IMG/VR virus record: IMGVR_UViG_3300030061_002429
Location: 1 to 64,000 of that record
Strand: one strand, 5' to 3'
DNA length: 64,000 nt
Source of the DNA: a virus
Shown here: one piece after another, positions 265-33,252 of the stretch
How positions within the stretch are numbered: the first letter of the stretch is position 1
Layout: each line of letters opens with the position of its first letter
The notes under the pieces: generated by a model
The model's database searches: none
What the model was told of the DNA's origin: nothing
What the model saw: the letters and a program-made list of their open reading frames with translations, nothing else
Translations under genes and position numbers: made by a program

Positions 265-341
265 TTCTTTTAGTCACGCACACCTTTCCGAGAAAAAAAA
301 TTTCAAACAAAATTTTTATGGTGAAACTACCTCCGAACACC

Positions 342-620
342 ATGAGCCAGTCGTTTAACATAGCATGGTCTATGTTAAAACAAGACTTCCGTGAGGCAAT
401 GGAGTCGCAAGTAGACCCACAGGGTCAATTGGCGCAAGCATTGGCTATGGCTCGACAGCAGGGACAGGCTCCGCCTATCCAGTTTGCACCAAGACTACCG
501 CAACCTCAAACAATGCCTCAAGACCCACGTCAAACAACCCTACCGCCTGAATTTATTGGTGATGCAACTGTAGGTCGTGACTTTAGTCAAGCCTTGCAAA
601 ACATCAAGCCAAAGCGGTGA
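342..620 (+). CDS. small Q/P-rich protein with N-terminal AWxxLK tag
   Basis: ORF 318..620; ATG 342 gives MSQSFNIAWSMLK; TTTTAT about 25 nt upstream; contains DPRQTTLPPEF. Confidence 0.7.
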   Translation: MSQSFNIAWSMLKQDFREAMESQVDPQGQLAQALAMARQQGQAPPIQFAPRLPQPQTMPQDPRQTTLPPEFIGDATVGRDFSQALQNIKPKR

Positions 621-624
621 ACAA

Positions 625-1389
625 ATGAACGCCTTTGACATTGCTTGGTCTTTGCTCAAAGAAGACGACACAATGCAATACGGTGAACGAGCAGTAAATC
701 GGCAAAGAGTACTGCCAAGTGATGGCTCATCTTTCATGCCTGTGCTTGCTGATTCAGCAGAAGTCATAGACAGGGAATTTGCAGAAGGTTTAGCACGTCG
801 AATGGACACAAGCCCACCTAAAACACCAACAAAAGTTGTACGCTATCCTGAAGGTAATTGGGGCGATAAGTATGTTCTTGAAGATGATGAAAGAAATGAA
901 TATTCACAAGTTAGCGGAATGGTAAGAGATTCTTGGGATAAAGGATTCAATGAACGTCAAGGAATATCAACTGTAAATCCTACATTATCAAGCATAATGT
1001 CCGAAACAAAACATGGTGAACGACGCAAAGGACATTACGAAAGACTGTTAAATACAATACTGCAAAACAATATGAACATACATTCAACCTCAAGAAATTA
1101 TGCATCTGAACCATTTCATCAAAAATTTCAAGGTCGTTTAGCACCAAATATTGAAATGCATACACGATACAATAGTATTGGAAAACCAAAATTTCTTTAC
1201 ATGAAAAACCCAATCAAAGACTCAAAACAACAAGCGGTGCGTAATGTACAGGGTTGGGGTGACTTGCAACCTGATTACAATACGTTACCGCTTGTTAATT
1301 TTCAAGATACAATCAAGCCACAATTAGGTAATTTGTTTGAACAACATTATGGTACAAATCAAACAAGTCTTAACGACTTTGGTCAATAA
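625..1389 (+). CDS. tagged protein with GNAT-like acetyltransferase domain and C-terminal PIP-like motif
   Basis: GGTGA RBS then MNAFDIAWSLLK; ERRKGHYERLL resembles GNAT motif A and SEPFHQKF motif B; ends QTSLNDFGQ. Confidence 0.55.
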   Translation: MNAFDIAWSLLKEDDTMQYGERAVNRQRVLPSDGSSFMPVLADSAEVIDREFAEGLARRMDTSPPKTPTKVVRYPEGNWGDKYVLEDDERNEYSQVSGMVRDSWDKGFNERQGISTVNPTLSSIMSETKHGERRKGHYERLLNTILQNNMNIHSTSRNYASEPFHQKFQGRLAPNIEMHTRYNSIGKPKFLYMKNPIKDSKQQAVRNVQGWGDLQPDYNTLPLVNFQDTIKPQLGNLFEQHYGTNQTSLNDFGQ

Positions 1390-2000: not shown

Positions 2001-2051
2001 GACACTCGTAGACATCGGTATTTCTAAATTGTATCGTTGCCTCGCACGAGT

Positions 2052-3722
2052 ATGGTCGGGGCAAAGCCTGTGCTTGTACTTAAGCAACAGACTCGTCTTA
2101 GCGACTTTTATCCAGTGACATTACCTGAAATACAAACACCACAAGAAGAAGAATATTGGCGAACATTACATCAACAAAGCCTAAACAACCCTGCGAGATT
2201 TCAAAGAAGTCTTGGGGGCTTTCTACAACAGCAATTACCCGAAGTTTCACCGTTATCAGCAGAACAGCAATTAAACATGCATCTTGACGAGTTGCGAGCC
2301 GGAACAGAAAATCCTGAAGACATCGTGCAAGAATACGTTGAAGATATGCAAAACAGAAGATATGCTTCAAATGTTCCCCAAAAATTAAGTGAACGAACAA
2401 AGAAAGAAATAATGCGTGCCATAGATACAACGCCGCTTTTCGATAATTACGACAAATTTGACCGTTTAGTTGATACTATACCATACAAAGAAGGAAAAAC
2501 TTGGGACAATAAAATATTAGAAAGTATACGCAATACTCCACAATTTCGTGATTACTTTGGTCGTCAAACTACGTTGCCTGAGCATTTTCCCTCATATCAT
2601 ACCGAAGATTGGCTTGACCCTGAAACTGGCTTAGTGCGTGAAGGCGCAGTAGCCCCTGTAACGGCTGTACGTCGTGCAAATAGCAGTGACATTATGGCTG
2701 GTATGGCGCAAACAGGTGGTGGTTTAATACCGCTTCCAAACGATAGCAATGAAACTTTTGAAAGTCGAAGTACAGCAAAAGTTCCGTTGCTTATGGAATC
2801 ACAAAATCCACCACTTGAACACTTTCAAGGTGGGTACTTTTTGACTACACCGTATGCTGATGATTTAGACCGTTCTGTTACAACACACAGTACAGATGCA
2901 CTTATTGGAGTTCGTGGATTTGGCGCACCAAGCGGTGATATATTCCAAGCACGACCAGCAGGTATGACAAAAGAAGGTGCAACAGAAGCCATTGTACACA
3001 GCCGTATACCCCCTGAACGCCTTGTTCCACTTCGATATGTTGACACAAGAATAGAATATGATAATGAAAATAAACCGTTTTCAGTTAAGCAATCAAAACC
3101 ATCTTTTCTTACACAAAACGACATAAGAAATTTCTTTCGACCAAAAAGAGCAACCGATTTTCGTCAAGCCATAGGTCAAGAAAAAGATGAGTCATCTTCA
3201 CGCAATCAAAAGTTTGACTACATCCGTGACCATTTACCGTTTATGCAGTTTGCGCCTCCTGAATTTGATGAAATGATTGATAGGCATGGAATGCCAGTCG
3301 CACTTACAAACGAAGAAAAAAACCGTTTTTTAGAAGCAATGGAAGAGGAAAATCGAGCGCATCATAGGGATATGAAAACTCCTGAACGTAGATTAAAAGA
3401 AAAACTTGATTTATTGCGTGAATTGGGTGTAAGTAATTGGTATGATAGAAGAAATAACATAACACCTCCAACACTACGTGATGTAACACTACCTCAAACA
3501 TGGGGTGACCCGATGGCATCACTAAAAAACGCACCACCTCACGTAAAAAATGCGCTTATTGATTTGTTTAATCGAAGATTTTATACCAATTATCCGACCA
3601 ATGACTATTTAGAAACGTTGGGTGCGTTACCCGTACCCGAAGAACAAAAACAAAAAGTACTTGAAAGTGCAAACAATCCAGAAAAGACAGATTTTCAAAC
3701 CTTAGGCGAACTATTTGGATAA
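2052..3722 (+). CDS. tagged protein with PIP box and ADP-ribosyltransferase-like domain
   Basis: PVLVLK then QTRLSDFY (canonical QxxLxxFY); VTAVRR...GGYFLTT...LIGVR...TEAIVHSRIPPERL pattern shared with the 61244 and 61748 ORFs. Confidence 0.5.
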   Translation: MVGAKPVLVLKQQTRLSDFYPVTLPEIQTPQEEEYWRTLHQQSLNNPARFQRSLGGFLQQQLPEVSPLSAEQQLNMHLDELRAGTENPEDIVQEYVEDMQNRRYASNVPQKLSERTKKEIMRAIDTTPLFDNYDKFDRLVDTIPYKEGKTWDNKILESIRNTPQFRDYFGRQTTLPEHFPSYHTEDWLDPETGLVREGAVAPVTAVRRANSSDIMAGMAQTGGGLIPLPNDSNETFESRSTAKVPLLMESQNPPLEHFQGGYFLTTPYADDLDRSVTTHSTDALIGVRGFGAPSGDIFQARPAGMTKEGATEAIVHSRIPPERLVPLRYVDTRIEYDNENKPFSVKQSKPSFLTQNDIRNFFRPKRATDFRQAIGQEKDESSSRNQKFDYIRDHLPFMQFAPPEFDEMIDRHGMPVALTNEEKNRFLEAMEEENRAHHRDMKTPERRLKEKLDLLRELGVSNWYDRRNNITPPTLRDVTLPQTWGDPMASLKNAPPHVKNALIDLFNRRFYTNYPTNDYLETLGALPVPEEQKQKVLESANNPEKTDFQTLGELFG

Positions 3723-3730
3723 GTGATTCT

Positions 3731-6382
3731 ATGTTTACAAATTGGAAAAGAAATGCGGATAAAGAAACCCGCTTAAATCCGTTATCTATAGATAATATTG
3801 ATGCTCTTACCATTGCCTCATTACGTGGTATGGGTACAACGCCTGAAAAATTTCGTTCAAATGTACAGCAAGACATGCCTGAAGATATTATGGAACAAGG
3901 CGAAGAAATCATGCGTAGAAATCCAAAAGTAACAATGCCTGAATCGCATTTTAAACTGCAAGGTGCTCAAGAACAACAAATGATGGATGATATAGAACTT
4001 GAAATTCCTGAATTTGAGTTTAATGAAGAAGAGGCATTAAAAAACGCAAGAATGCAAGAAATGAATCGTGAAATACCGATACAACGAATGAATGAAGCAT
4101 ACAAAAAAACATACAAAGACCACGTTATGCAAGCCTTTGAGAAACACAAAGCATTCATGCAAAGTCTTGGTAACCAACCAATGACTGCTCAAGAGTTTAT
4201 GCAACATCCAAAAGTGCCTTCGCTAACCGATTACATCAATCAAGCAAAAGAAGGCACAATGCCCGGTGGAGATAATGCAGACGAACATCCGTTTGCTATG
4301 ACGCACCCTAAAGAGTTCATTCAACATAGAGATGGTACAGGCGATATATTACCACCAATTGGAATGGGAGGGACATTTAGAAACGATGACCCATTTATCC
4401 CCGTCATCACAGGCGAGCCAATGGACTTAGCAATGGACATCTTGCTTAAAGCGGGGCAATTCCAAAGTGCCGCACAGCGTCGTATTTACAGTGAAATACC
4501 AACGCTTGAAGAACGTGGATTAGAAGCAAAAGATGTTCCATTCATACGAAATATAGGTGTACATCGTATAGAAAGTGCTAATATGCCAGCATTCAACATT
4601 CCAGTGCCACTTCGTGGTGAACGACCCGGTGACCCATTACGATTTGAACGTGATGTTTATGCAAGTGGCGGTGCAACCATACCCGGTTTTACGCCTGATT
4701 ATCAAATACCTGATGACCCTCGTAAAGAAATTCAAGGAACGTTTGTTTATTCGAATGATTTACAATCACTTTCACCTGAATTAAGAATGGGTTATCCTGA
4801 TTTTAATTGGGGAATCGGTGATACTGTAACACTTGGTATACTTGACAAACCTGAATGGCTTGCAGGTCAAGCACATGGAAGAACCCAACCCGAAGGGTAT
4901 CAACCATTTGGCTTTGATAAGGACGCATTTGTACGTTTAGACGATGGTTTGGGAACAGCCGCTATTGCTCCACGAAGAGAATTGGTATCATCAGCAAGAA
5001 GACTCTTAACAGGTAACCCACTTACAGGTGATGAGTACAAGTATTATGATTACAAACCACTTTACGATATGTTGTCAAAATTACCAGCGACAACTCTTGA
5101 AAGCCAACGTGACCCAGTAACAGGTTATCTTCCTAAAACATCTGATTTTCTTCTTGACCGTACAGGCGGCGCAAGAATCGTTGCCAGCGAACCAATGGAC
5201 TTGGCAATAGACGCATTGCTCAAGCGTGACTTTGATTCTTGGGAAGTTCACCCCGGTGAAAATCAATACAAACACAATTACAAAATGCCAAATCCTGATG
5301 ATGTACACCCCGAATGGTATGATTGGCTTCATGAAGTTATTAACGAGCCGTGGGAATACGAAGGAATTATGGATGATTATCAACAACCCGACATAGACCA
5401 CTTAACAGGTGCTACATCTCGTGAAGATTTCTTTGAAAGATTATATGATTTACATAATTTTCAAGTTGATGATGCATCACCTCCGCATAACATTATTGAC
5501 GGTGTTCGTAATTTTACTGATATACCATTCAACGAAGAAACAGGCTTTACTCGTAGCGAACCAATGGACTTGGCAATAGACGCATTGCTTAAGCGTGAAC
5601 TTCACCCCGGTTATCCTGAAGATATGTCAATTGAAGACATGATAAATGCTGGACACGATTATCCTTTTAACAAAGATAAATACCCTGACGGGTATCTTGC
5701 TAATTATCCTGAAGAACACATTGAAGAGTATGGAAAAAAACCGTTTAATCCAACTGAACCCGGTGAACAACCTTTACATGTAGGATTAAACGGTCTTCCT
5801 CCATACTCTCAACGTGATATTGATGCTCACCGTGAACAAATGTATCGTGAAACACTTGAAAGAATGAACGCAATAGATAACAGTAGAGATAATGAATCGT
5901 GGGCTAAATGGGTAGCAAGTGAAGCAATGCCACCTGCACCACAGGATTCACCATTACGTTTAACAAGACAAATAATGGTTCCAGTAAAAAATGCTGATGA
6001 AAATGATGTAGACGCTTTAATGGATATGCCTGATGAAACAGGGGCAACAGTAGTACAATCATTTGCAGGTATACCGATGAATGAAAAAACAGGTTTCACT
6101 CGTAGCGAGCCAATGGCATTAGCAATGGATGCATTGCTCAAAGACCTGTCACCTGAAGCCAAGCGTCACAAGTTGGAGTACGACAAGAAGTACGAGTCCA
6201 GTCCTGAACGAGTCAAGTATCGAGAGGAATTAAACCGTGAGCGACGGCGACGTGGTATCTACGGCAGTGGCGACCACATGGACGTGTCGCATACAGAAGG
6301 CGGAAAACTGACACTGGAATCCGAACATGACAATCGAGCAAGGCATTTTAAGGACAAAGGGACACTACGACCCAGTGATTGA
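3731..6382 (+). CDS. modular polyprotein with four EPMxLAxDxLLK linkers and C-terminal HNH-like domain
   Basis: 883 aa; linkers at 4415, 5189, 5558 and 6107; last module GDHMDVSH...LESEHDNRARH resembles short phage HNH domains. Confidence 0.7.
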   Translation: MFTNWKRNADKETRLNPLSIDNIDALTIASLRGMGTTPEKFRSNVQQDMPEDIMEQGEEIMRRNPKVTMPESHFKLQGAQEQQMMDDIELEIPEFEFNEEEALKNARMQEMNREIPIQRMNEAYKKTYKDHVMQAFEKHKAFMQSLGNQPMTAQEFMQHPKVPSLTDYINQAKEGTMPGGDNADEHPFAMTHPKEFIQHRDGTGDILPPIGMGGTFRNDDPFIPVITGEPMDLAMDILLKAGQFQSAAQRRIYSEIPTLEERGLEAKDVPFIRNIGVHRIESANMPAFNIPVPLRGERPGDPLRFERDVYASGGATIPGFTPDYQIPDDPRKEIQGTFVYSNDLQSLSPELRMGYPDFNWGIGDTVTLGILDKPEWLAGQAHGRTQPEGYQPFGFDKDAFVRLDDGLGTAAIAPRRELVSSARRLLTGNPLTGDEYKYYDYKPLYDMLSKLPATTLESQRDPVTGYLPKTSDFLLDRTGGARIVASEPMDLAIDALLKRDFDSWEVHPGENQYKHNYKMPNPDDVHPEWYDWLHEVINEPWEYEGIMDDYQQPDIDHLTGATSREDFFERLYDLHNFQVDDASPPHNIIDGVRNFTDIPFNEETGFTRSEPMDLAIDALLKRELHPGYPEDMSIEDMINAGHDYPFNKDKYPDGYLANYPEEHIEEYGKKPFNPTEPGEQPLHVGLNGLPPYSQRDIDAHREQMYRETLERMNAIDNSRDNESWAKWVASEAMPPAPQDSPLRLTRQIMVPVKNADENDVDALMDMPDETGATVVQSFAGIPMNEKTGFTRSEPMALAMDALLKDLSPEAKRHKLEYDKKYESSPERVKYREELNRERRRRGIYGSGDHMDVSHTEGGKLTLESEHDNRARHFKDKGTLRPSD
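5186..5598 (+). repeat. 44-nt direct repeat encoding the linker peptide
   Basis: AGCGAACCAATGGACTTGGCAATAGACGCATTGCT(C/T)AAGCGTGA at 5186-5229 and 5555-5598, one mismatch; more diverged copies at 4415 and 6107. Confidence 0.9.
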
Positions 6383-6383
6383 T

Positions 6384-6983
6384 ATGACACCAATGCAAGA
6401 GGCTTGGCAGATTTTAAAAACCGAGTTTTTGTTTGAAAATGCTCCAAGAGAGCAAACTATACCTGCTGGTCTTGTCTCTCATAGTTTTAGTCCCGACTGG
6501 CTTTCAAACATTGAAAGTAATCCCGCCGAAGCGGAAATCAACTTAGGCCATAGTAAATTTCCACAAGAGGTAGAAAAAATAACAGGCGGTGAATTTCAAA
6601 CGCCTGAATACCCATACGATAGAGAAGGCGTAATCAATAGTTATTGGAAAAATTATGATAAGAAGTTTGACCCCGCACTTATTGACAGTATGACTGATTT
6701 ACTACGACACGAATCTGTGCATGAAACTCTCAATAACGTTCCTGAAATGAGACAAGCACTTGCTCATGCAGTTAGTGAAGCCAAGAAAGGTAATTTAGAA
6801 CCTTACAAGCAGTGGTTGGTTGTCCACGAAACTATGGCTAATTTTCAACCACCTAATTTTAAAGGTGAAAAAGAAAACGTCAAGAATTACATATGGAATA
6901 ATCCTAAGTTTAGTCACAGTGAGTTGTATGAAGAAGCGCAAAAAGTCAAACAAGGTGGATGGAAAAGAGGTGAAAAACAATGA
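6384..6983 (+). CDS. tagged putative zincin metallopeptidase
   Basis: Starts MTPMQEAWQILK; LLRHESVHETL (HExxH) with a downstream Glu in VHETMA. Confidence 0.55.
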   Translation: MTPMQEAWQILKTEFLFENAPREQTIPAGLVSHSFSPDWLSNIESNPAEAEINLGHSKFPQEVEKITGGEFQTPEYPYDREGVINSYWKNYDKKFDPALIDSMTDLLRHESVHETLNNVPEMRQALAHAVSEAKKGNLEPYKQWLVVHETMANFQPPNFKGEKENVKNYIWNNPKFSHSELYEEAQKVKQGGWKRGEKQ

Positions 6984-7638: not shown

Positions 7639-7797
7639 GTACTACTCTTAATTATAATATAATTGTAGTACCTATGAATAAATGACTATTGTATTGGTCA
7701 ATTTAGTGACTATACCTGTGAATAAAGTGAATAAAGCGGTAAAGTGACCATAGCGAAACGTTTATGTTGCCCATTATTTTGACCAACAGTGAGAACG

Positions 7798-8325
7798 ATG
7801 CAGGGCAGTACTGAAAATTCGGACGCTGAAATACGACTAATGGGGCTTATTTTGTCGCAATCCGCACTGGTTGGGTTGGCAATTGGAATCTTTGACAAGG
7901 ACATTTGGCTCAACCACGACGACCCAATGGTAAACGGTTTTACCTACGCAATGGCAGCATTCTTTGTGCAAGGTATTGCGTACTATTTCTTCAAAATGTT
8001 CTTTGAACAGAACATGCAAGAGCGTGTACGTATACAACAATCCGAGCGACAACGCCAAACTCGATACCGTTCTTTGCAAACCAACTTCGATAATCGTCGT
8101 GCCGACATGGAGTTGCGTATGCAAGAAGCGCAACTTGAGCGTGAACTGCGATGGATGGAAGAAAACCCCGGTAAAATGCCTCCATCATGGGGCGTACAAG
8201 GTGGCTCTCCTTCATTGGTAAGCCAGTACGATGAAAATCAACTTAATGTATATCCTCCAAAACACGAGGCTATTGTCGATAAACCAATTAACTTGGGTAT
8301 CAAAGAGGAAGAAAAGAAAGAGTGA
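7798..8325 (+). CDS. two-TM membrane protein with coiled-coil tail
   Basis: Two hydrophobic segments (LMGLILSQSALVGLAIGIF; FTYAMAAFFVQGIAYYFF) then a Q/E/R coiled coil. Confidence 0.75.
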   Translation: MQGSTENSDAEIRLMGLILSQSALVGLAIGIFDKDIWLNHDDPMVNGFTYAMAAFFVQGIAYYFFKMFFEQNMQERVRIQQSERQRQTRYRSLQTNFDNRRADMELRMQEAQLERELRWMEENPGKMPPSWGVQGGSPSLVSQYDENQLNVYPPKHEAIVDKPINLGIKEEEKKE

Positions 8326-8336
8326 GGTGAACCCGC

Positions 8337-8591
8337 ATGGGTCGCATATTCAAAACGCCAAGTGATGACAGCACCGAAGCAACACTTCGTGCCATGCATA
8401 CGCAAAACACACTTGACAATTATTACGAAAAGGGTTGGGGATGGCTTCGTACCATACTGTTTACATTGTTTGCTGTTTTGGCAACGAGCCTGTGGGAAAA
8501 ACACACAGATGCATCGGTATGGGACAACACAGTAGAATGGTTTGTAGGTAAAGTCGAAGACTTTGGTAACTGGGTTTTGGGGTTGTTCTAA
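8337..8591 (+). CDS. small membrane protein
   Basis: GAGGTGA RBS; WLRTILFTLFAVLATSLW hydrophobic helix and amphipathic C-terminus. Confidence 0.75.
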   Translation: MGRIFKTPSDDSTEATLRAMHTQNTLDNYYEKGWGWLRTILFTLFAVLATSLWEKHTDASVWDNTVEWFVGKVEDFGNWVLGLF

Positions 8592-9307
8592 TGGTAGACC
8601 CAGCAGGTTCAGCATTGGTTGGTGTCATGGTTTGGGGTCAAGCCCTTTACAATTCATGGCGACCACGACGTGTTGGAATCTATGGTGCGGGTATGGTCGG
8701 TAAAACAACACTTGACCGTTTTATGACAACGCCCGGTGAAATGGAAGATATATCTGAAGAAGAACGAACATTGCATCGTAAAATGCTCGGTAAGTACAAA
8801 ATGCCAAAACCAACACGTAAGCGTGTAAGTTGGAAAGGACACAAGCGTGTTGTGTATTCTTCTGACGTGGGTGGACAAGAACGTTTTTGGAATCTTTGGA
8901 TTGATGATATGGTTAATCGACAAGTTGAGGCTGTTGTTTACATGTTTGATGACCGAGCCTTCAAAGGTGGTAATGATGCATTACAACAAGTCGCAGGTTT
9001 CAAATTCCTTGTCGATGCTATTCTTAATCGACAATATCGTTACCGCAACTGGAAAGCACGACGCAAGGGCAAAAAGTACATGCCAAAACTGATTATGTTG
9101 GTTGCAAACAAGGCTGACCGTTTCTTCGATGATACTGCCGCAATGTTGTGGCAACAAGACCGCATAGGTGAACATAAGATATTCGACCCGTTTCGGGATG
9201 ATTTAATACGATTGCAACGTGGAGGTGTACCTACACGACGGTCGTTTATGGCTACAAGAATAGGGTGGAACGTTGAAAATACAATGGTCGATTTATTGAC
9301 AGCATAG
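8591..9307 (+). CDS. Arf/Ras-like small GTPase
   Basis: G1 GAGMVGKT, G3 DVGGQERFWNLW, G4 NKAD, G5-like MATRIGWNV; hydrophobic N-terminal helix. Confidence 0.9.
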   Translation: MVDPAGSALVGVMVWGQALYNSWRPRRVGIYGAGMVGKTTLDRFMTTPGEMEDISEEERTLHRKMLGKYKMPKPTRKRVSWKGHKRVVYSSDVGGQERFWNLWIDDMVNRQVEAVVYMFDDRAFKGGNDALQQVAGFKFLVDAILNRQYRYRNWKARRKGKKYMPKLIMLVANKADRFFDDTAAMLWQQDRIGEHKIFDPFRDDLIRLQRGGVPTRRSFMATRIGWNVENTMVDLLTA

Positions 9308-9315
9308 GTGAGCAC

Positions 9316-9480
9316 ATGACAAAAACAAACATTACGTCTGTAGGAAACAAAACACAAAGTCTACGTACGGTTATACCGTTGTGGATTGTAAAAGTCTTGA
9401 AACTGTCAAAAGGTGACAAGATTGAATGGGATGTCGATGTACACAATAGTACAATTGAAATTAAAAAGGTGAAAGAATGA
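9316..9480 (+). CDS. AbrB/MazE/SpoVT-type DNA-binding protein (54 aa)
   Basis: Not in the ORF track; AGGTGA RBS; SLRTVIPLWIVKVLKLSKGDKIEW matches the swapped-hairpin consensus. Confidence 0.75.
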   Translation: MTKTNITSVGNKTQSLRTVIPLWIVKVLKLSKGDKIEWDVDVHNSTIEIKKVKE

Positions 9481-10418
9481 CTCTATTTTACGACAGAAAC
9501 ACAGGTATGCAACGCTTAGGTTCTTCAAATGAAGCACATTTGTACGCACTTAGCCAGCAGGGTAATGAATCGTTAAATTATGCAACGCTTATGGAACAGG
9601 CTACTGCACAATCGGCTATGCAACAAATTGCATCGGAACAAAACCTTGAAGTTCCAAAAGTCAATTTTTATCCTTCACGTCATCCTGACCCGCACAAAGC
9701 ACGACGCAAAGATATTCGACAAGCACGTAAACTACTTTCACCAGCAAAGCGTGCATGGTTCAACCCTATGCGATTCTTGTTTGGGCAAAAATACCGATAC
9801 GACCGTCAAGCCAGTATGTGTGTTGTTGATGGATGCGATTGTGCAAAACTAATTCAACACGACAATTTGTACGCAAAAATTACGGATGAAGAAACAGGTT
9901 ACTCACTATGGCAACTGTATTGGCAAAATCCAGTTACAGGAGAAGCCGAAGCATTTGTTGCAAAAGAAAAAGTCATGAATGGACGTAAAATGAAAGGCAC
10001 ATACTGTCCTGAACATTTGCATTTGTATCATCTTCTCAACAAGTGGGAGTCTGAAGAAGACAAACTACGTGAAGCAAATCCACGTCGTCTACGTGACCGT
10101 GTAAAGAAAGGTGTGTCAATGGTGACTGTACCTGTCGCTACCATGAAGAAAAAAGACCCGCAACCTGCTATGTTGGAAAAGTATGAACCATTCTTTGCTG
10201 AATTGGACAAAGACAGCAAAAAATTCAGTGGTATCAATATACAGTATTATGAAAATCCAATCACAAAAGAAAATGACATTACTACAGTGACTTTTGATTT
10301 GAGAATTTTTAAAGCGGAATTGGAAATGATGAACCAGCCAACTCCTGCTTTTCAAACAATTCTTAACCAACAGATGCAACAAAACACTATTGAAGAAGTA
10401 CAACTTGGGGGAGAGTGA
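9477..10418 (+). CDS. hypothetical protein with putative Zn-binding Cys/His
   Basis: 313 aa, coupled start; CVVDGCDC...YCPEH. Confidence 0.7.
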   Translation: MTLFYDRNTGMQRLGSSNEAHLYALSQQGNESLNYATLMEQATAQSAMQQIASEQNLEVPKVNFYPSRHPDPHKARRKDIRQARKLLSPAKRAWFNPMRFLFGQKYRYDRQASMCVVDGCDCAKLIQHDNLYAKITDEETGYSLWQLYWQNPVTGEAEAFVAKEKVMNGRKMKGTYCPEHLHLYHLLNKWESEEDKLREANPRRLRDRVKKGVSMVTVPVATMKKKDPQPAMLEKYEPFFAELDKDSKKFSGINIQYYENPITKENDITTVTFDLRIFKAELEMMNQPTPAFQTILNQQMQQNTIEEVQLGGE

Positions 10419-11032
10419 GTCTGATGTTGAATCTTAATCAAAACACCAATTCCAACGGTGCACTCAATCTTGGAGTAAACAGTGTTCAACAATCAACACC
10501 AATGCAAAATCCGTGGGCTTCCCAGCAACAACAAAATCCATTTATGCAAGGATTGGTTGGTGAAAATTCACAATTTATGAATCAACCAGTAGCCCCTCCA
10601 TCAGAAATTGAAATTCAAATTATGTTGTTGCGTGGTATTGTTCCTGTAGACCGATTCATAGCAAGTGAATCTATGGCTACAATGGTGCAGATGTTTAACG
10701 ACCTTGTAACATTTAGTGTTCTTGAAGTTTTCAAGAACGCAACATTTGTTGCTGATGATGATGGTAATCTCAAAATGGATGTAACTTCACTTCCTTCACA
10801 TTTACAAACCATGAGTTCAGATAACATTGCATCGAAGTTTACTGCCCTTCAAAGTGCGGCAACTCAAAACGTACAGACGGCTGAACAACAACAAATGCAG
10901 TTGAATCAAATGGCACAGCAATCTATGATGGGTGGTGCGTTAAGTGCCGCATTACAAAATGAAGGCATGATGCAAAAAGTGGGTGGCGGTGTAGGCACAT
11001 TTGCTCGTACACTCTTTACAGGAGGTCGTTAG
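10415..11032 (+). CDS. Gln/Asn-rich hypothetical protein
   Basis: GTG start overlapping the previous stop; Q-rich ends, Gly-rich amphipathic C-terminus. Confidence 0.7.
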   Translation: MSLMLNLNQNTNSNGALNLGVNSVQQSTPMQNPWASQQQQNPFMQGLVGENSQFMNQPVAPPSEIEIQIMLLRGIVPVDRFIASESMATMVQMFNDLVTFSVLEVFKNATFVADDDGNLKMDVTSLPSHLQTMSSDNIASKFTALQSAATQNVQTAEQQQMQLNQMAQQSMMGGALSAALQNEGMMQKVGGGVGTFARTLFTGGR

Positions 11033-11275
11033 ATGCAAGATAAAAGTTACTTACCGTACGGCTTTTCGACTTCATCGTTGAGTGTTATGAATCCACCACG
11101 TAGTGTCATTATTGACATGATAATGGTACAGTTTATCTCAATTATCTTGACAATGATTGCAATTATGTTGTTCAAAGGTAATGAGTTGTCATCTACAACG
11201 TTGTCATACTTTCTCGTTGCTCTCTTCGGAAGCGTCTTGATGGTTACTGGAATCTATTCGAGAATCACTCGATAA
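11033..11275 (+). CDS. small two-TM membrane protein (holin-like topology)
   Basis: GGAGGT RBS; two hydrophobic helices in 80 aa. Confidence 0.7.
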   Translation: MQDKSYLPYGFSTSSLSVMNPPRSVIIDMIMVQFISIILTMIAIMLFKGNELSSTTLSYFLVALFGSVLMVTGIYSRITR

Positions 11276-11572: not shown

Positions 11573-12253
11573 ATGGCGGGTGAGCAAGTTGTCAAACGCT
11601 CCTGCGCTTTTTGCATGGACGAAGACCGTGAAGAGTTGGAAGAACAACTGCTTCAAGGTTACATTTCTCCAAAGCAATTGGACAAAGATAAAGGGTGGAG
11701 GCCGAACACATCCGACCGCCATTATCGAAATCACATGGGTGAGTACCATATAGCCGCTAACGCATCTTGTCCTGTGTGTACTTCGCCTCATCGAGCCGAT
11801 TACGAAAGCATTTATTTTGCTGACGGCTCACAAAGTGAAGTCATTGCTCAAGAACTGGGCATCAGTGAAAACTTGGTATATCAACACATGAAACATCACT
11901 TCCAACCATTGGTGCAAAAAACTGCGGCTCTTGAGATAGCATCGTTTGCTGTCGGCAACGAACTTTCTTTATTGCGTAACAATGCTGAACATTTGAATCA
12001 TAAACTAACAGAACTGCTTAACGAAGGCACTGTTCATGAAGATGGATTTGTTCGTGATGCTGTTGCTTTGCATAAAGAAGTAAGAGAAACCGTCAAAGAC
12101 TTGATGCGCTTCCAAGACCAATGGGGTCCACAAGGTGAAACACAGCAAGTCAATCAAACATTCAATATTTTGCAGGTTGAACTGAACAAAGAAAGTCCTG
12201 AAACGTGGGCAAGAATCAAAGCACAATTGCAAGAAAACATGGGGGTTGAATAA
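11573..12253 (+). CDS. tandem Zn-finger/HTH DNA-binding protein, candidate terminase small subunit
   Basis: Two CxxC...HxxxH repeats, the second with IAQELGISENLVYQH HTH, then a helical region; first gene of the operon leading to TerL. TerS role is inference. Confidence 0.5.
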   Translation: MAGEQVVKRSCAFCMDEDREELEEQLLQGYISPKQLDKDKGWRPNTSDRHYRNHMGEYHIAANASCPVCTSPHRADYESIYFADGSQSEVIAQELGISENLVYQHMKHHFQPLVQKTAALEIASFAVGNELSLLRNNAEHLNHKLTELLNEGTVHEDGFVRDAVALHKEVRETVKDLMRFQDQWGPQGETQQVNQTFNILQVELNKESPETWARIKAQLQENMGVE

Positions 12254-14139
12254 TGCCAATGATGGGAAGAGGTTCTGACACCCGAATGTATGCACCACGT
12301 AGTGAATCGGAAACGATGTACTCGTCGGCCAATGAGGATGGCACAAAATACAGTGGCAATACTCCTGAAGAAAAGGAGAAGAAAGAAGAAAACCGCAAGT
12401 TGCGAGCCGAAGAACGCAAGCAACGTCGTGATAAAATCAAGCACATCAAGATTCGCTCATCACAGGGATTGAAGGGTGAAGAGTCACCTGTTCCTGAAGA
12501 CGACAGCAACAAACAAGATGACGAGCGTGAGATTAGCCTACAAGGTGGTCCGGCGGGTAGTCGTGGTAATCTTCTCGACCTTGCAACAGGTGCAAAAACG
12601 GGTACAGGTTCAGCAATGACTGGACCGTTGCCGATTGCAATGAGTGAGCCAATGGATGGTGCTTGGAGTTCGCTACTCAAGGCTGTGCTTGGTGACCAAA
12701 GAGGTGTTGTGTATAACCCTCGTTTCAGAACAAGTGAATCGCCAAATCAAGCAGATGTACGTGAAGGTCAAGCATTTGGAATGGTTGGTTCACGACGTGG
12801 GGCTGGTGAACCAGCAGAACGTCGTAGAAAACAATTGGTTATGGGTCAAAAAAGATTGGACGCAGGTATTGATAAAAGACTGATGTACAGCGACCCTGAT
12901 TATTACGATTACTTGGTGGCACGTACTCAACTTCCTCCTTCAAAGCAACAAGAACTACCTTACCCTGCTGTAGAAAGAAGAAACATTGAACGGTTAGGCG
13001 GAGGACAAATGCAGGGTGGGCGACGTGGCTCGATTGCTCAACGTGCAGGGTTTGATGCAAGTCCAGCACAACTACACAATTTACAACGTCTTTCTACAAC
13101 AATGATACCTCAAAAATTTATGATGAGAGATGACGCAATTGATTATTCGGGCTTAACCCCATCACCAGTACCAAACATGGTGTATACTCCTGATGGTACA
13201 CTTATTCCTGACCCTCGTCTTGAACAAAAATCCAGTGATTTTGTTTTGGTGTCTAATATTCTCAAGCGTGAAACACCTAAGAGTATCGAATCACGTCGTC
13301 GTCGTGAAAAGCGACAACAGTTCCGACCATCAACAGGTCAATTTAAGCGACCACCCGGTGGTATGAATCCTGTTGGTGCAACCATGCGTCGATTCCGAGC
13401 ACGTATGCGTGGTATCAAAGGTGGTAAGAAAACAGGTTTGATGAAGCCACACTTGTCTGTTGAGATGAGTCACCGTGGTATTGCAACAAAGCAACCAATG
13501 TCCAAAGACCCACAGAAGTATCGACAATACATGGGTCAATCCGAGGCTCGTAAAATACTTGGTAATGTACGCTCAACATTTTCACCACACGCTCGATACG
13601 GTGAACGTTCCGTTACAGCAGGTCCAACAGGTGCAGGTCGTCTTGGTGGATTGATGCCCGGACAATCAGGACAAATGCGACAACCTTCGCTCAAACAAAT
13701 CGGTGTACGTCGTCCACGACTACGACGACCTCGTAATCCAGTTATGGCTACCGCACCACCAATGGGTGTACCAAGTCCACCAATGCAAGCACCATCAAGT
13801 ATCTCATCGCTACCCCAAGCATCGACTCCAATGATGATGAGTGAGGAGCGTGCAGAAAGTGATTTGCTCAAAGGTCGTGTAAATTCGTTAAAGTATCATA
13901 AAATCAATCTTCTTCGTCGTTTAATAGCAGCACAAGAACGTGCTGAAAAACTTGGTAAATCAATGCAAGGTACACGTTCAGCAATGGAAAACGGCCATGT
14001 CCCAAGCCACCCTGCGGGTGTACGTGCAAAAGACGAAGAAGACCCTGAAGGTCCAACCGAAAATTTGGAAACAGATGCAAAGCGATTTGGACTTGACCCT
14101 GCTGGATATTTGACCTCAAAGCGGGGGCATATGGGATGA
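12253..14139 (+). CDS. basic low-complexity protein with internal tag
   Basis: 628 aa; EPMDGAWSSLLK at 12646-12681, also NILK/RE and DLLK/GR; Arg-rich segments. Confidence 0.7.
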   Translation: MPMMGRGSDTRMYAPRSESETMYSSANEDGTKYSGNTPEEKEKKEENRKLRAEERKQRRDKIKHIKIRSSQGLKGEESPVPEDDSNKQDDEREISLQGGPAGSRGNLLDLATGAKTGTGSAMTGPLPIAMSEPMDGAWSSLLKAVLGDQRGVVYNPRFRTSESPNQADVREGQAFGMVGSRRGAGEPAERRRKQLVMGQKRLDAGIDKRLMYSDPDYYDYLVARTQLPPSKQQELPYPAVERRNIERLGGGQMQGGRRGSIAQRAGFDASPAQLHNLQRLSTTMIPQKFMMRDDAIDYSGLTPSPVPNMVYTPDGTLIPDPRLEQKSSDFVLVSNILKRETPKSIESRRRREKRQQFRPSTGQFKRPPGGMNPVGATMRRFRARMRGIKGGKKTGLMKPHLSVEMSHRGIATKQPMSKDPQKYRQYMGQSEARKILGNVRSTFSPHARYGERSVTAGPTGAGRLGGLMPGQSGQMRQPSLKQIGVRRPRLRRPRNPVMATAPPMGVPSPPMQAPSSISSLPQASTPMMMSEERAESDLLKGRVNSLKYHKINLLRRLIAAQERAEKLGKSMQGTRSAMENGHVPSHPAGVRAKDEEDPEGPTENLETDAKRFGLDPAGYLTSKRGHMG

Positions 14140-17599: not shown

Positions 17600-19081
17600 A
17601 TGAGCGAAGACATTCAAGCCTTCATTAACGAAATGGATGCGAAGATGTCGGCAAAGTCGTTTCAATATTTTTTTGAAAACATACTTGGGTTTGATTACTC
17701 GTATCACCATGAATGTTGGGACAAAGGATTGGAAGAAAACCGATACTACTGTGTCAAAGCGAGTCGTGACCACGGCAAGTCTGTTTTCTTTATGTCGTAC
17801 GCTCTATGGATAGCGGCATTCCGACCCGGAACACACGTCATGATTTTTTCACACTCACTTGAACAGACGCTTGAACACATGCGATTTATTCGCAACAACA
17901 TTGAATCAACACCTATTCTACGTGAATTGATACCACAAGGACGACCGTGGAGAAAGACATACTTTGAGTTTGCAAATGGAAGTCGTATGATGGCAAAGTC
18001 GGTCGGTGGAGGTACTCGTGGTTTCCACCCTGATGTGGTTGTATGCGACGATATTCTATGGGGTACAACGGGTACTGAACTACAGCGTGCGGCTGATTGG
18101 TTTTACGGTGTCTTACTTCCTGTACTGCACCACAGTGGACGCATGATGATTGTCGGTACACCGTTTTCATACAACGACTTGTACGCTGAACTGGAAGAGA
18201 GAGATGCTTTCACCGTTGAAACATATCCCGCTATCAACAACGAAGGCGAAGCACTGTGGCCTGAACGATGGAATCTTGAAGCACTTGAACACAGAAGACT
18301 CTCTATGCCAGCAATTCAGTTTTCTCGTGAGTATCTTTGTGAACCGATTCATGATGTAGCGAGTATGTTTCCAAACGACATATTGGAAAAGGCTCGTGAC
18401 AAAGACTTGGTATTGCTTGACAGGGCTGAAACTGATTACGACGAAGAAGGTGAACCTGTAGGAGTCTTTGGACAACACTTCATTGGATGGGACACAGCAA
18501 TTGCGTCGGATAAGAACGCTGACTTTACTGCAATGATGGTTCTTCGTACACCGCCAAATGATAATGTAAAACAAATTGTAGGTATTGTTCATGAAAAAGG
18601 ATTGGGTGGTGCAGCGCAAAAGAAACACATTCTATTGCTTAACAATCGTTTCAAGCCCGATTTGATTGAACTTGAAGGTAACAACTTCCAGCGTATGTTT
18701 GCGGCTGAACTCAAAGATATGCGTGAAGATATACCTATCAAGACGTTTATGACAACTCGACAACGCAAAGAAAGCATGTTCATGTCATTGTTGATGGCAT
18801 TTGAGCAAGGACAGATTCGTACACCGTATGGTGATGAACGCAGTCGTACTTTCACACATAAACTTGAACAAGAACTCAACCGCTTTGGTATGCAAAAGAA
18901 CGGTAAGTTGGAATCTGTTGGTACACACGATGACTTGGCAATGGCATTAGCATTAGCCAATTGGGGTACGAAAGAGTTCCGTGGCACAGTCGTATTACTT
19001 GATGATTGGATGCCCGGATTTGGCGATTGGCTTGACAATACCGTAGGTGGAAAAAACACAGGAGGGTGGATGATACCATGA
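17600..19081 (+). CDS. terL: terminase large subunit
   Basis: Walker A ASRDHGKS, Walker B VVVCDD, GTP coupling motif, LWPERW, FSREYLCEP, RNase H-like IGWD...HDDLAMALALA. Confidence 0.95.
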   Translation: MSEDIQAFINEMDAKMSAKSFQYFFENILGFDYSYHHECWDKGLEENRYYCVKASRDHGKSVFFMSYALWIAAFRPGTHVMIFSHSLEQTLEHMRFIRNNIESTPILRELIPQGRPWRKTYFEFANGSRMMAKSVGGGTRGFHPDVVVCDDILWGTTGTELQRAADWFYGVLLPVLHHSGRMMIVGTPFSYNDLYAELEERDAFTVETYPAINNEGEALWPERWNLEALEHRRLSMPAIQFSREYLCEPIHDVASMFPNDILEKARDKDLVLLDRAETDYDEEGEPVGVFGQHFIGWDTAIASDKNADFTAMMVLRTPPNDNVKQIVGIVHEKGLGGAAQKKHILLLNNRFKPDLIELEGNNFQRMFAAELKDMREDIPIKTFMTTRQRKESMFMSLLMAFEQGQIRTPYGDERSRTFTHKLEQELNRFGMQKNGKLESVGTHDDLAMALALANWGTKEFRGTVVLLDDWMPGFGDWLDNTVGGKNTGGWMIP

Positions 19082-30756: not shown

Positions 30757-32133
30757 ATGCTGACGCTAAAGCGACCTTCTATGGACATCGCTCTCCTCAA
30801 GAGTGGTTCCGACTTGGTTGTAGCAGGTTATGCATCGGTCGAACTTGTCGATAAGCAAGGCGACCTTATTACTCGTGGTGCACTTAAAGACGCATTTGAC
30901 GGGTTCATGAAGAGTGAGAAGTACCGCAACGTACAACTCGCTCACTCAAACATCCAAGTCGGTGAAGTCTTGGATTCTTACGTAGACAGCAATGGCCGAA
31001 TGTGGAAGTCCGAATGTGACGACACAGGCATGTTTGTTGTTGTTCAACTCCGCAATGATATTGAGAAGGCTCGTGAAGTAGCCGCCGAGATTCGCAAGGG
31101 TAACCTTCGTGGATTTTCAATTGGAGGACAAGCATTCAAGCGAGTGCGAAAGTCTGACAACATTAAAGGCGATTACCAAGAGATTTCAAAAATGGAATTG
31201 CACGAAATTACGATTTGTGAGAAGGGAATTAACCCTGAAGCACAGTTCAGTATACTAAAGGAGGACACAAATATGACAAGTGAAGTTGATTTGAACAGCG
31301 TTATGGAACGATTAGAAGCCCGACTTGATGCAATGGAAAAGGGAGAAATTCCTCCTCAACTCCGTGAGCACATCAAGGATAAAAAAGATGACGAGCCAAA
31401 AGAAGAAAAGAAAGATGGTGAAGACATGAAAGAAGAAAAAGACAGTGACGACAAAGCATACATGAAGAGTGAAAATTTTGGCGATGTAATTACATCCGAA
31501 TATCTTGACTGGATGGAAAACACATTGAAGTCTGCTGGAGTTGATACAATGGCGGCTCGTGCTCACTTCGATGATGTGGCTAAGGCTCAACTTGGTGGAT
31601 TTGATAATCCTGACTCCGTTGACGGTGCTGACTACTTTGCTGGTCAAGTCCGTGGCCGAGGACAAGAAAATGGCAGTCCATCTACTGGTGCGCTTTCAGC
31701 CCTCACCTCCGGTGGTGGCAAGCAACCATCAGGTGCACTTGGACCAGTTTCAATGTCTAAGGGTTACCTCAATGAAGGCAACGTTTCTTCATCCGACATC
31801 GAGAATGCATACGAAGTCTACAAGGCAGCATCTCTTGAACAAAACTTCCGAAACAATTTGGAAGCAAACTTTTCCCAGCGACTTGCAAAGGAACTCGAAA
31901 TCGAGAAGCAAGAAGCAGAACGAAGCACTTTTGACGCTCGTGGACCACTTACAGAAGTCCTCAAGTCAATCGAGAACCTCTCCGAGCGTATTGATAACTT
32001 GAACACTGAAAGTCACACAATCGCAAAATCTGTTTCCTCCGCTAATGTTGAGATACCATCAACCCAAGACTTGGGTAACATGTCATGGGATGAGGTGCAC
32101 AACCTTGCAAGCAAAACGTTGAGGGGAGCCTGA
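30757..32133 (+). CDS. prohead protease fused to scaffold region
   Basis: GYASVELVDKQGD, LAH, GFSIGG and HEITI match HK97-type maturation proteases; acidic coiled-coil C-terminal half; directly upstream of the MCP. Confidence 0.92.
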   Translation: MLTLKRPSMDIALLKSGSDLVVAGYASVELVDKQGDLITRGALKDAFDGFMKSEKYRNVQLAHSNIQVGEVLDSYVDSNGRMWKSECDDTGMFVVVQLRNDIEKAREVAAEIRKGNLRGFSIGGQAFKRVRKSDNIKGDYQEISKMELHEITICEKGINPEAQFSILKEDTNMTSEVDLNSVMERLEARLDAMEKGEIPPQLREHIKDKKDDEPKEEKKDGEDMKEEKDSDDKAYMKSENFGDVITSEYLDWMENTLKSAGVDTMAARAHFDDVAKAQLGGFDNPDSVDGADYFAGQVRGRGQENGSPSTGALSALTSGGGKQPSGALGPVSMSKGYLNEGNVSSSDIENAYEVYKAASLEQNFRNNLEANFSQRLAKELEIEKQEAERSTFDARGPLTEVLKSIENLSERIDNLNTESHTIAKSVSSANVEIPSTQDLGNMSWDEVHNLASKTLRGA

Positions 32134-32151
32134 AATTAGGAGTTGAACAAT

Positions 32152-33252
32152 ATGGCAAGAGATTACATCAGAAGCATTACAGACATGGAACGATATTATT
32201 ATGGCGCAGGTAACGCTATGGGTTACTCCTACTCCGGTAGCGAGTTGCTCAAGGCTGACGCACCTATGCTGTCTACGACCGCAGGTACATACCAAGCAAT
32301 CTACGGACGCAAGGTTTGGAGCCAGTTGAACCAAGAGTTTAACGCTTTCTCCATTCTACCAAAGCGACCTTGGGAGCGCAGTGGATGGCGAGTCATCACC
32401 GCACGACCTTCCTTCGCAAAGGGTGGCGGTGTTGCTGAAAACGCTACACTACCTGACACAACCAAGCCTACCTTCCAGCACATTGCGGCCAAGCCAAAGA
32501 CGATTGTCCACACATTCGACATGAGCGAAACCGCAATGTTCCTTGCTGACAAGGACGATGGACTTGGTGACATCCGTTCTATCCTTAAGGAAGAGATGGG
32601 TAAGCACCACGCTGAACACATCAACAAGATGATGACTGCTGACAAGGGAACTGTTGCAGGGAACGATTTCGAGTCCCTCGACCGTGTTACCACTGGTGCA
32701 TCCGCATCCGCAAACGAGGACATGTACAGCATTGACCGAAGTGCAAACTCTTGGTCCCTCGCTGAACACAATGTAGACGCTGGTGGCGACCGTGTTCTTT
32801 CACTCGACCACCTTGACGACCTCTTCCAAAAGATTTGGACTCGTGGTGGTAACCCGAAGGTTATCCTTACTGGATATGACACACTCATGCGTCTACAGCA
32901 ACTCCTCCAGTCGCAACAGCGATTCATGGAAGAGAAGCGTGTCACCCCTACCTACAACGGTGTAAAGGGTGTACCCGGTATCGAGGCAGGTTTCATCGTT
33001 GCTACATACAACGGTGTCCCAATCATTCCTTCCAAGGATGTACAACCTGACTCTCTAAGTCGTATGTACTTCCTCGACACTGACTACCTTTACTTCTCCA
33101 CTGCAATCCCAACGCAATACTTTGAGTCCGGAATTGAAACTGGCGACCCATTCGCTATCAACCGTCTTGGACAAGAAGGTATGTACCGCACAATGGGAGA
33201 ACTTTGGACCACTTTCTTTGGAGGTCACGGTTCCATTCGGGATTTGAAGTGA
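32152..33252 (+). CDS. major capsid protein (HK97 fold)
   Basis: Position after the protease; GGVAENATLP, PKTIVH, YNGVPIIPSKDV, MYFLD; strong codon bias; AGGAG RBS. Confidence 0.92.
   Translation: MARDYIRSITDMERYYYGAGNAMGYSYSGSELLKADAPMLSTTAGTYQAIYGRKVWSQLNQEFNAFSILPKRPWERSGWRVITARPSFAKGGGVAENATLPDTTKPTFQHIAAKPKTIVHTFDMSETAMFLADKDDGLGDIRSILKEEMGKHHAEHINKMMTADKGTVAGNDFESLDRVTTGASASANEDMYSIDRSANSWSLAEHNVDAGGDRVLSLDHLDDLFQKIWTRGGNPKVILTGYDTLMRLQQLLQSQQRFMEEKRVTPTYNGVKGVPGIEAGFIVATYNGVPIIPSKDVQPDSLSRMYFLDTDYLYFSTAIPTQYFESGIETGDPFAINRLGQEGMYRTMGELWTTFFGGHGSIRDLK

Follow-up and report, generated by a model that had tools for sequence, protein, structure and literature searches.

How does a single viral gene come to encode several unrelated protein modules joined by the same short peptide, and what does this peptide do? 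The question is raised by an open reading frame (ORF) of 883 amino acids (aa) in the first 64 kb of a 101,688-bp IMG/VR virus record (IMGVR_UViG_3300030061_002429; estimated completeness 94%). This stretch of 64,000 nucleotides (nt) is called the window below, and its source fits the published description of magroviruses. The ORF contains five modules, called C, B, E, F and A in their order, which are separated by four copies of a short motif, the tag. Modules have evidently been gained, lost and reordered among the relatives of this polyprotein. The DNA of the tag is well supported as the joint at which this takes place, and the tag also heads free-standing genes. We lean towards the view that the tag is, in addition, a capsid-targeting propeptide at which a prohead protease would cut.

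The polyprotein and its four tags

The consensus of the tag is (S/G)EPM(D/A)LA(M/I)D(I/A)LLK, with two Asp and one Lys, which makes it acidic. The motif EPM[DA]LA[MI]D[IA]LLK begins at aa 229, 487, 610 and 793, in line with the four linkers reported in the preliminary description of the locus. A six-frame search of the 101,688-bp genome for this strict form finds these four copies and no other. The parts of the polyprotein are listed below; tag spans include the preceding S/G residue.

3731..6382, plus strand: polyprotein ORF, 883 aa, architecture C-tag-B-tag-E-tag-F-tag-A; open frame confirmed
3731..4411, plus strand: module C (aa 1-227), acidic and partly helical; constant first module in close orthologues (62-100% identity)
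4412..4450, plus strand: tag 1, GEPMDLAMDILLK; M231-K240 invariant in 17 orthologues
4451..5185, plus strand: module B (aa 241-485), constant second module (38-100% identity)
5186..5224, plus strand: tag 2, SEPMDLAIDALLK, inside copy 1 of a 44-nt repeat (5186-5229)
5225..5554, plus strand: module E (aa 499-608), variable cassette that is absent, replaced or moved in relatives; ends IPFNEETGFTR (5522-5554)
5555..5593, plus strand: tag 3, SEPMDLAIDALLK, inside copy 2 of the 44-nt repeat (5555-5598)
5594..6103, plus strand: module F (aa 622-791), variable cassette; ends IPMNEKTGFTR (6071-6103)
6104..6142, plus strand: tag 4, SEPMALAMDALLK
6143..6379, plus strand: module A (aa 805-883), basic and very conserved; matches phrog_6437

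The segments between the motifs are 228 (C), 246 (B), 111 (E), 171 (F) and 79 aa (A) long. The peptides IPFNEETGFTR (aa 598-608) and IPMNEKTGFTR (aa 781-791) directly precede tags 3 and 4, as had been described for two of the linkers. The near-perfect 44-nt DNA repeat was found again as well: its copies agree at 43 of 44 positions and are spaced by 369 nt, which corresponds to 123 codons. The modules are dissimilar, since an all-against-all BLAST of the five matched only the pre-tag motif common to E and F. A hidden Markov model (HMM) of the tag recovered the four tags and fragments from the six-frame ORFs, and nothing more. The motif is too short for the local scoring of HMMER, so counts of regular expressions were compared with those in shuffled sequences instead.

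The full-length protein was modelled with AlphaFold2 (AF2) from 17 orthologues. The mean predicted local distance difference test score (pLDDT) was 34.5 and the predicted template modelling score (pTM) was 0.19. Every tag was modelled as a short separate helix flanked by low-confidence stretches, which argues against a chain that folds as one repeat protein.

Shuffling of cassettes among relatives

When close relatives are cut at the tag, their architectures read C-B-A, C-B-E-A, C-B-D-A, C-B-D-F-A, C-I-B-F-E-A, C-L-B-F-H-A and C-B-E-D-H-M-A, among others. An invariant architecture would have spoken against the gain and loss of modules, and it is clearly not what the orthologues present, because both the number and the order of modules vary. 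The preliminary description had pointed to a deletion of 5230-5598 as an event to look for. In relatives P0004, P0006 and P0018, B is fused directly to F, which is the product expected from such a deletion between the 44-nt repeats.

The same holds for a wider sample. In the 240 relatives found in databases, 440 tags were counted (between 0 and 6 in each protein). Their internal modules fall into 65 families, most of which occur in several neighbour contexts. Pairs of internal modules that are at least 95% identical in different proteins are informative here: among 79 such pairs, the left neighbour belongs to another family in 63, the right neighbour in 46, and both in 41. One relative, the polyprotein P0393, has 10 tags in 1866 aa, and its A-like module is followed by about 60 further residues. 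Modules B and C behave differently from E and F in the close orthologues, as the list above indicates, and B-like regions are also found in further proteins that end in A. From these comparisons it is evident that modules have been gained, lost and reordered.

Recombination at the tag codons

The linker DNA had been suggested as a recombination joint, and a cassette exchange was found that fits this role closely. Cassette J is 98% identical in protein sequence between P0012 (C-B-J-A) and P0020 (G-J-I-A). The identity starts at TGEPMDLAIDALLK and stops in the next tag. At the DNA level, the two loci (L009 and L006) share about 570 nt at about 99% identity, and both transitions lie within tag codons. 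Their flanks have no detectable relation, with 6-16 of 30 positions equal per alignment window. Together with the near-identical modules that have differing neighbours, this exchange makes the linker DNA a well-supported joint for gaining and losing modules.

The codons of the tag are themselves conserved. Between 29 tags from eight loci, 61% of the comparisons at positions with the same residue show the identical codon, where codon usage predicts 38%; the two figures are descriptive, since the comparisons lack independence. A 5' DNA core, AGCGAACCAATGGAC, is nearly invariant in tags across divergent loci. Ahead of the internal tags, (S/G)-E is present in 94-98% of 393 distinct junctions. This dipeptide and the nearly invariant DNA core could represent a second processing site or the core of recombination.

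The tag as leader of free-standing genes

The same kind of peptide is found at the N-terminus of unrelated genes of the window, which are named here by their start positions (318, 625, 6384, 6980, 35837 and 60893). The genes next to the polyprotein are as follows.

318-620, plus strand: upstream tagged gene, leader ..FNIAWSMLK
about 625-1389, plus strand: upstream tagged gene, leader MNAFDIAWSLLK
2037..3722, plus strand: upstream gene with a short ..PVLVLK leader
6384..6983, plus strand: free-standing tagged gene, leader MTPMQEAWQILK; a single intervening base separates its start codon from the polyprotein stop codon
6980..7486, plus strand: free-standing tagged gene, 168 aa, leader MTPMQEAWLLLK; weak GNAT-like matches; overlaps the stop of gene 6384

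Farther downstream, the leader of gene 35837 is MTPFNIAWSILK and that of gene 60893 is ..TPMENAIALMK. Shorter leaders of the ..LLK/..LVLK type are carried by the protease, the capsid protein, the gene after the portal, an ORF of 1932 aa, and genes 2037, 14136 and 16309. The pattern A-hydrophobic-x(1,2)-[LIM][LIVM]K occurs 15 times in the predicted proteins compared with 4.0 +/- 2.1 times in shuffles. Within the first 45 aa it was observed 6 times against an expectation of 0.62 +/- 0.79. All the tagged genes are on the late/structural strand. Free-standing leaders have N or T where internal tags have the Glu. The leaders were absent from the head-module genes of the halovirus HVTV-1, and therefore the full tag is not general among the halovirus relatives.

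Some bodies are found both free and fused. Module A is present in the protein database as a free-standing gene of 91-92 aa that starts with MNPMDIAFQLLK and continues directly into the body of A. Since these free genes open with the tag, the linker of the polyprotein is equivalent to the leader of a free gene. Gene 6980 aligns along its entire length, leader included, with internal segments of P0081, P0120 and P0047 at 58% identity. In the syntenic loci of relatives, 0, 1 or 2 free tagged genes lie between the polyprotein and a conserved small-GTPase cassette. Residues 168-332 of gene 2037 are homologous to the N-terminal part of many proteins ending in A in other magroviruses. Tagged cassettes have thus evidently passed, by fusion and fission, between free genes and polyproteins.

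A second tagged fusion is encoded by gene 12253 (12253-14139). Its internal tag, SEPMDGAWSSLLK, lies at aa 132-144 (about 12646-12684). In its homologues P0027, P0030, P0034 and P0036, an extra E-like cassette is inserted at the position of the tag. A leader of the form MVKLPPN.MSQSF.IAW.MLK begins a 100-aa protein here (318-620); in the close relative L005 it begins a 201-aa protein with a different body (318-923). At 61244-62344, two adjoining paralogous genes both begin with MFEKAWRFLK and continue into different bodies. Within the polyprotein itself, aa 16-32 of module C (3776-3826) read NPLSIDNIDALTIASLR, which looks like a stretched tag with Arg at its end; no other helix of C is modelled as well. 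This N-terminal sequence may be a degenerate leader.

A candidate load-and-cut mechanism

The genome contains a protease that could act on the tag. The genes of the head module that matter here are the following.

17600-19081, plus strand: terminase large subunit (terL)
21831-23645, plus strand: portal
30757..32133, plus strand: HK97-family prohead protease (Peptidase_S78); its C-terminal extension is long and its N-terminal sequence is ..PSMDIALLK
32143..33252, plus strand: major capsid protein; a variable N-extension with ..SELLK at its end (K37, nt 32251-32253) is followed by the conserved body ADAPMLSTT

The protease gene scores 38.3 bits against PF04586 (cut-off 21). Against TIGR01543 it reaches E = 7.6e-12 and 45.6 bits, below the NCBI cut-off of 59 bits. 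Every prohead protease studied removes an N-terminal propeptide from the capsid protein (PMC7411985), and the HK97 capsid protein is cut at K103/S104 (PMC10275583). A corresponding boundary can be predicted in the present capsid protein. In 107 of 123 diverse homologues with N-extensions of 16-108 aa, K/R stands immediately before the body (A/S/T)D(A/D)P(V/L)L(T/S)T, and L/I/V/F occupies P3 in 92 of the 123. The tag ends in L-L-K and so presents the same hydrophobic-x-Lys arrangement as this predicted boundary. Upstream of the boundary, the capsid N-extension (32143-32253) has its own motif, ..I(K/R)TIEDMERYYYG.., conserved in the 123 homologues; it may be a miniature scaffolding or delta-like element.

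We propose that five independent cassettes, each made of a 12-13-residue amphipathic helix tag ending in Leu-Leu-Lys and a body, are fused in frame in the ORF, and that the tag is a capsid-targeting propeptide like that on the internal proteins of phage T4. The tag would carry each cassette into the assembling head, where the HK97-family prohead protease would cut after the Lys and free the pieces. Cassettes could then drift between separate genes and polyproteins, because fusion and fission would cost little once the pieces are cut apart. The tag codons with the AGCGAACCAATGGAC core would provide short homology, and recombination there would insert, delete, swap and reorder cassettes between fixed ends: module C or a domain like that of gene 2037 in front, and module A behind. 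The cutting of the polyprotein into separate proteins, already suggested in the preliminary description, we infer from the identity of leader and tag and from the HK97-type protease; loading into the head, cleavage after Lys and a function of the released pieces are presumed on the same grounds. Loading and cutting by way of the tag and this protease seems to us somewhat probable. A bolder proposal is a protein-level cassette system in which the tag is at once head-loading address, cut site and recombination site, and which supplies an injected combinatorial set of proteins; we consider it a serious possibility that falls just short of probable. Equally tentative is the accompanying suggestion that the tagged bodies are delivered with the DNA into the archaeal host, where cassettes such as those of some relatives that resemble S-adenosylmethionine (SAM) lyases and acetyltransferases would arrive.

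Several observations weigh against loading and cutting as proposed. The capsid N-extension has its own motif (..TIEDMERYYYG..) and only its last three residues are common with the tag, so that hydrophobic-x-Lys by itself ties the tag to the protease. Tags mostly continue with E, R or D after the Lys, and capsid proteins with A, S or T. A cut after the Lys alone would leave the next tag on the C-terminus of each piece. The mechanism also does not account for the nearly invariant (S/G)-E before internal tags, which might mark a second cut that releases the tag. The polyprotein gene is not part of the core portal-protease-capsid block and precedes terL by about 11 kb. Finally, module A is nearly always the last module, and it could have a role in cis rather than being an ordinary cassette.

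Part of this evidence would suit a chain that stays uncut like beads on a string, in which the tag is a docking helix and every copy binds the same partner, for instance the scaffold, the portal or the capsid interior. Such a chain would present several unrelated bodies and several docking sites together. Twelve conserved residues are far more than a cleavage site needs, the tags are predicted to be amphipathic helices, the capsid boundary shares only hydrophobic-x-Lys with them, and module A nearly always stands last. The same bodies, however, occur as free genes and in any order and number, which is easier to understand if they are separated after synthesis, and the Lys at the end of the tag is invariant in the presence of a protease family known to cut after Lys. 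We therefore consider docking without cleavage unlikely, as we do, in both its parts, the picture of a multivalent display that follows from it. Less likely again, the tag could be a signal for addressing or processing that has nothing to do with the head: it would either be recognised by a host or other viral protease, or send proteins to the membrane system encoded by the small-GTPase cassette (7789-11275). The cassette array does lie directly upstream of this membrane/GTPase cassette in every syntenic locus and outside the portal-to-capsid block. Against such a signal, the tag is acidic, unlike membrane-binding amphipathic helices; leaders of the LLK type also occur on the protease, the gene after the portal and the 1932-aa ORF of the head module; and the tagged genes share the late/structural strand.

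Separate proteins might also arise without proteolysis, by internal initiation at the tag Met or by ribosomal skipping at (S/G)-E-P. Every tag does contain an ATG, the AGCGAACCAATGGAC core is nearly invariant beyond what the protein sequence needs, and (S/G)-E-P hardly varies ahead of internal tags. At the true starts of this genome, however, a GGTGA/GAGG-type site lies 5-10 nt ahead of the start codon. No such Shine-Dalgarno-like site precedes the tag Met codons, which makes internal initiation unlikely; as a candidate it was rejected on this ground. Free-standing genes, moreover, begin one to three codons ahead of the tag Met, and the (S/G)-E-P junction is unlike the NPGP skipping motif. Taken together, a route without proteolysis is very improbable. 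The recurrence of the motif four times in one chain could finally suggest an ordinary repeat protein of fixed architecture with the motif as its structural repeat. This explanation has a negligible chance and was rejected, since the units of 79-246 aa between the motifs are unrelated, relatives have from 1 to 10 tags, and the AF2 model, with the low pTM given above, contains no repeat fold.

The nature of the modules

Modules C, B, E and F are acidic (isoelectric point 4.3-5.1) and rich in Pro and Gly; A is basic. In Pfam, NCBIfam and PHROGs, searched with the whole protein and with single modules, no family matched C, B, E or F above threshold. Module B had no usable match in the ESM Atlas, whose model of the protein has a mean pLDDT of 0.36. 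Structure prediction, proposed for each module, was carried out with AF2 on the full chain and on module A: the tags stood out as separate helices, and none of the modules received a confident fold. C, B, E and F were modelled at pLDDT of about 25-40 from a shallow alignment of 17 sequences, and module A at a mean of 59. The low mean pLDDT of the full chain means that no fold of a single module is usable for a structure search. One possibility is that C, B, E and F are internal proteins that are for the most part extended or disordered; another is that the alignments are too shallow to model them. For module E, a weak NDUFA12-like match was seen around ..VHPEWYDWLHEV.. (PF05071, E = 7e-4, 20.8 bits; cut-off 23), which may be due to chance.

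An effector role of the cassettes, as first suggested, is plausible, and for C, B, E and F it has no supporting family match or confident fold. Among 81 relatives that cover all 133 module families, a small number of cassettes matched known families: S-adenosylmethionine (S-AdoMet) lyase (2), GNAT (1-2), IF-2B (1), DUF5872 (4) and DUF3293 (1). No toxin family was found in these 81 proteins. The cassettes that match the S-AdoMet lyase, GNAT and IF-2B families sit among relatives P0147, P0099, P0185 and P0393.

Module A is the best-conserved piece (84-100% identity among close relatives), with invariant His, Asp, Ser, Asn and Arg residues, and it is the last module in 201 tagged relatives. This fixed position may simply follow from the insertion of cassettes between tags, which leaves the ends of the array unchanged. 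Its sole match in PHROGs, phrog_6437, is a family of unknown function. An untagged, basic homologue is present in Synechococcus phage S-CBS2. The last module had been described as HNH-like, and it does carry a DVSH..GG..N...H pattern, of which H67, N81 and H85 are invariant in the module A alignment (A1). The S-CBS2 homologue keeps the first His and the Asn and lacks the last His. The AF2 model of module A, built from 18 sequences, places a beta-hairpin and a helix at the right spot with low confidence. No HNH family was found in Pfam or NCBIfam at E <= 5-10, either for module A or for the 18 aligned members. A PDB sequence profile search with module A gave nothing relevant, and comparison of the model with the PDB (Foldseek) and with VIA-align wide gave no meaningful match. 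The HNH assignment is thus unconfirmed. The pattern and the predicted hairpin and helix are compatible with an HNH-like or a zinc-finger-like nucleic-acid-binding unit.

Comparison with known systems

Among known systems, the capsid targeting sequence (CTS) of phage T4 comes closest. The CTS is an N-terminal propeptide of about 10 residues on unrelated internal proteins; it suffices for packaging, and the prohead protease removes it (PMC9026906). It is carried by IPI-III and Alt, and the protease is gp21 (PMC9026906, PMC7411985). Like the CTS, the tag is a short, portable N-terminal peptide common to unrelated proteins of one virus, and the set of proteins that carry it varies between relatives. 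The CTS ends at the cut site of its protease, and the tag ends in Lys, the presumed cut site. The gp21-type protease of T4 cuts after Glu following an (L/I)-x-Glu rule, whereas the protease here is of the HK97-type S78 family. The CTS is found only at N-termini; the tag also occurs 1-10 times inside one chain, giving polyproteins of 2-11 cassettes. Loading and cutting are proven in T4, and here they are proposed. Unlike T4, the present virus has an archaeal host, and exchange of cassettes at the tag is documented in its DNA.

Phage HK97 resembles this virus in having a protease of the same family (Peptidase_S78 / TIGR01543) in the head module and a cut after Lys, predicted here, at the start of the capsid body with a hydrophobic residue two positions earlier. 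The HK97 protease processes the capsid protein and itself. To our knowledge, no array of tagged cargo proteins or polyproteins exists in HK97. In the giant phages SPN3US and phiKZ, many head-internal proteins have propeptides that the prohead protease removes at one common motif (PMC7411985, PMC5694885). These propeptides are long (about 110-130 aa) and are not one common portable tag, and cassette polyproteins with exchangeable modules are not described for these phages.

Two other systems share part of the arrangement. In polymorphic toxin/effector loci (CdiA with VENN, Rhs with DPxGL, MuF-toxin prophage fusions), a short conserved peptide and its DNA border the swapped modules. As in these loci, conserved peptide and DNA mark the border of variable modules exchanged by recombination. 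Polymorphic toxin loci, however, combine a constant N-terminal delivery part with one variable C-terminal toxin. Here both ends are constant, the interior varies, several cassettes stand in series and no toxin domain is recognised; with its constant C-terminal module A, the present locus was not classed among them. Viral polyproteins are also cut at repeated sites by viral proteases in picornaviruses and in African swine fever virus (ASFV; pp220/pp62). One ORF, unrelated modules and a recurring junction motif are common to all of these. The gene order of the picornavirus and ASFV polyproteins is fixed and their products are essential, whereas module number, order and identity differ between close relatives here.

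The literature that was searched has nothing on such a tag or polyprotein in magroviruses. With well over a hundred unrelated protein families headed or joined by one portable tag, the system offers a view, at nucleotide resolution, of how short conserved linker codons drive in-frame shuffling of modules. Most magrovirus genes are uncharacterised, and if the tag is a head address, it would help to list which proteins travel in the particle. Among proposed capsid-targeting systems, it would also be the first from an archaeal virus and the first with an HK97-type protease. If it works as proposed, the tag could serve to load archaeal virus capsids with chosen proteins, an application already realised with the T4 CTS.

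Source virus and genome setting

Magroviruses rank among the most abundant viruses of the surface ocean. Nearly all genes of the window are on the plus strand, and the head module also holds the 1932-aa ORF mentioned above. The closest matches of the capsid protein are from the haloarchaeal siphoviruses HVTV-1, HCTV-1 and HCTV-5 (35-37% identity). The opposite strand codes for a family B DNA polymerase and a TCP-1/cpn60-family chaperonin. The genomes of published magroviruses measure about 100 kb and include a replication module of their own, and their capsid protein shares about 33% identity with those of haloviruses (PMC5434244). Because the gene set and the halovirus-like capsid protein match this description (PMC5434244), the virus that carries the polyprotein is labelled a magrovirus-like archaeal virus.

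The full-length chaperonin gene lies at 66207-67685 of the genome (G000; 208-1686 in L017) on the minus strand and matches PF00118 with E = 1e-124. Downstream of the tail genes, positions 44166-60896 are occupied by one ORF of 5576 aa.

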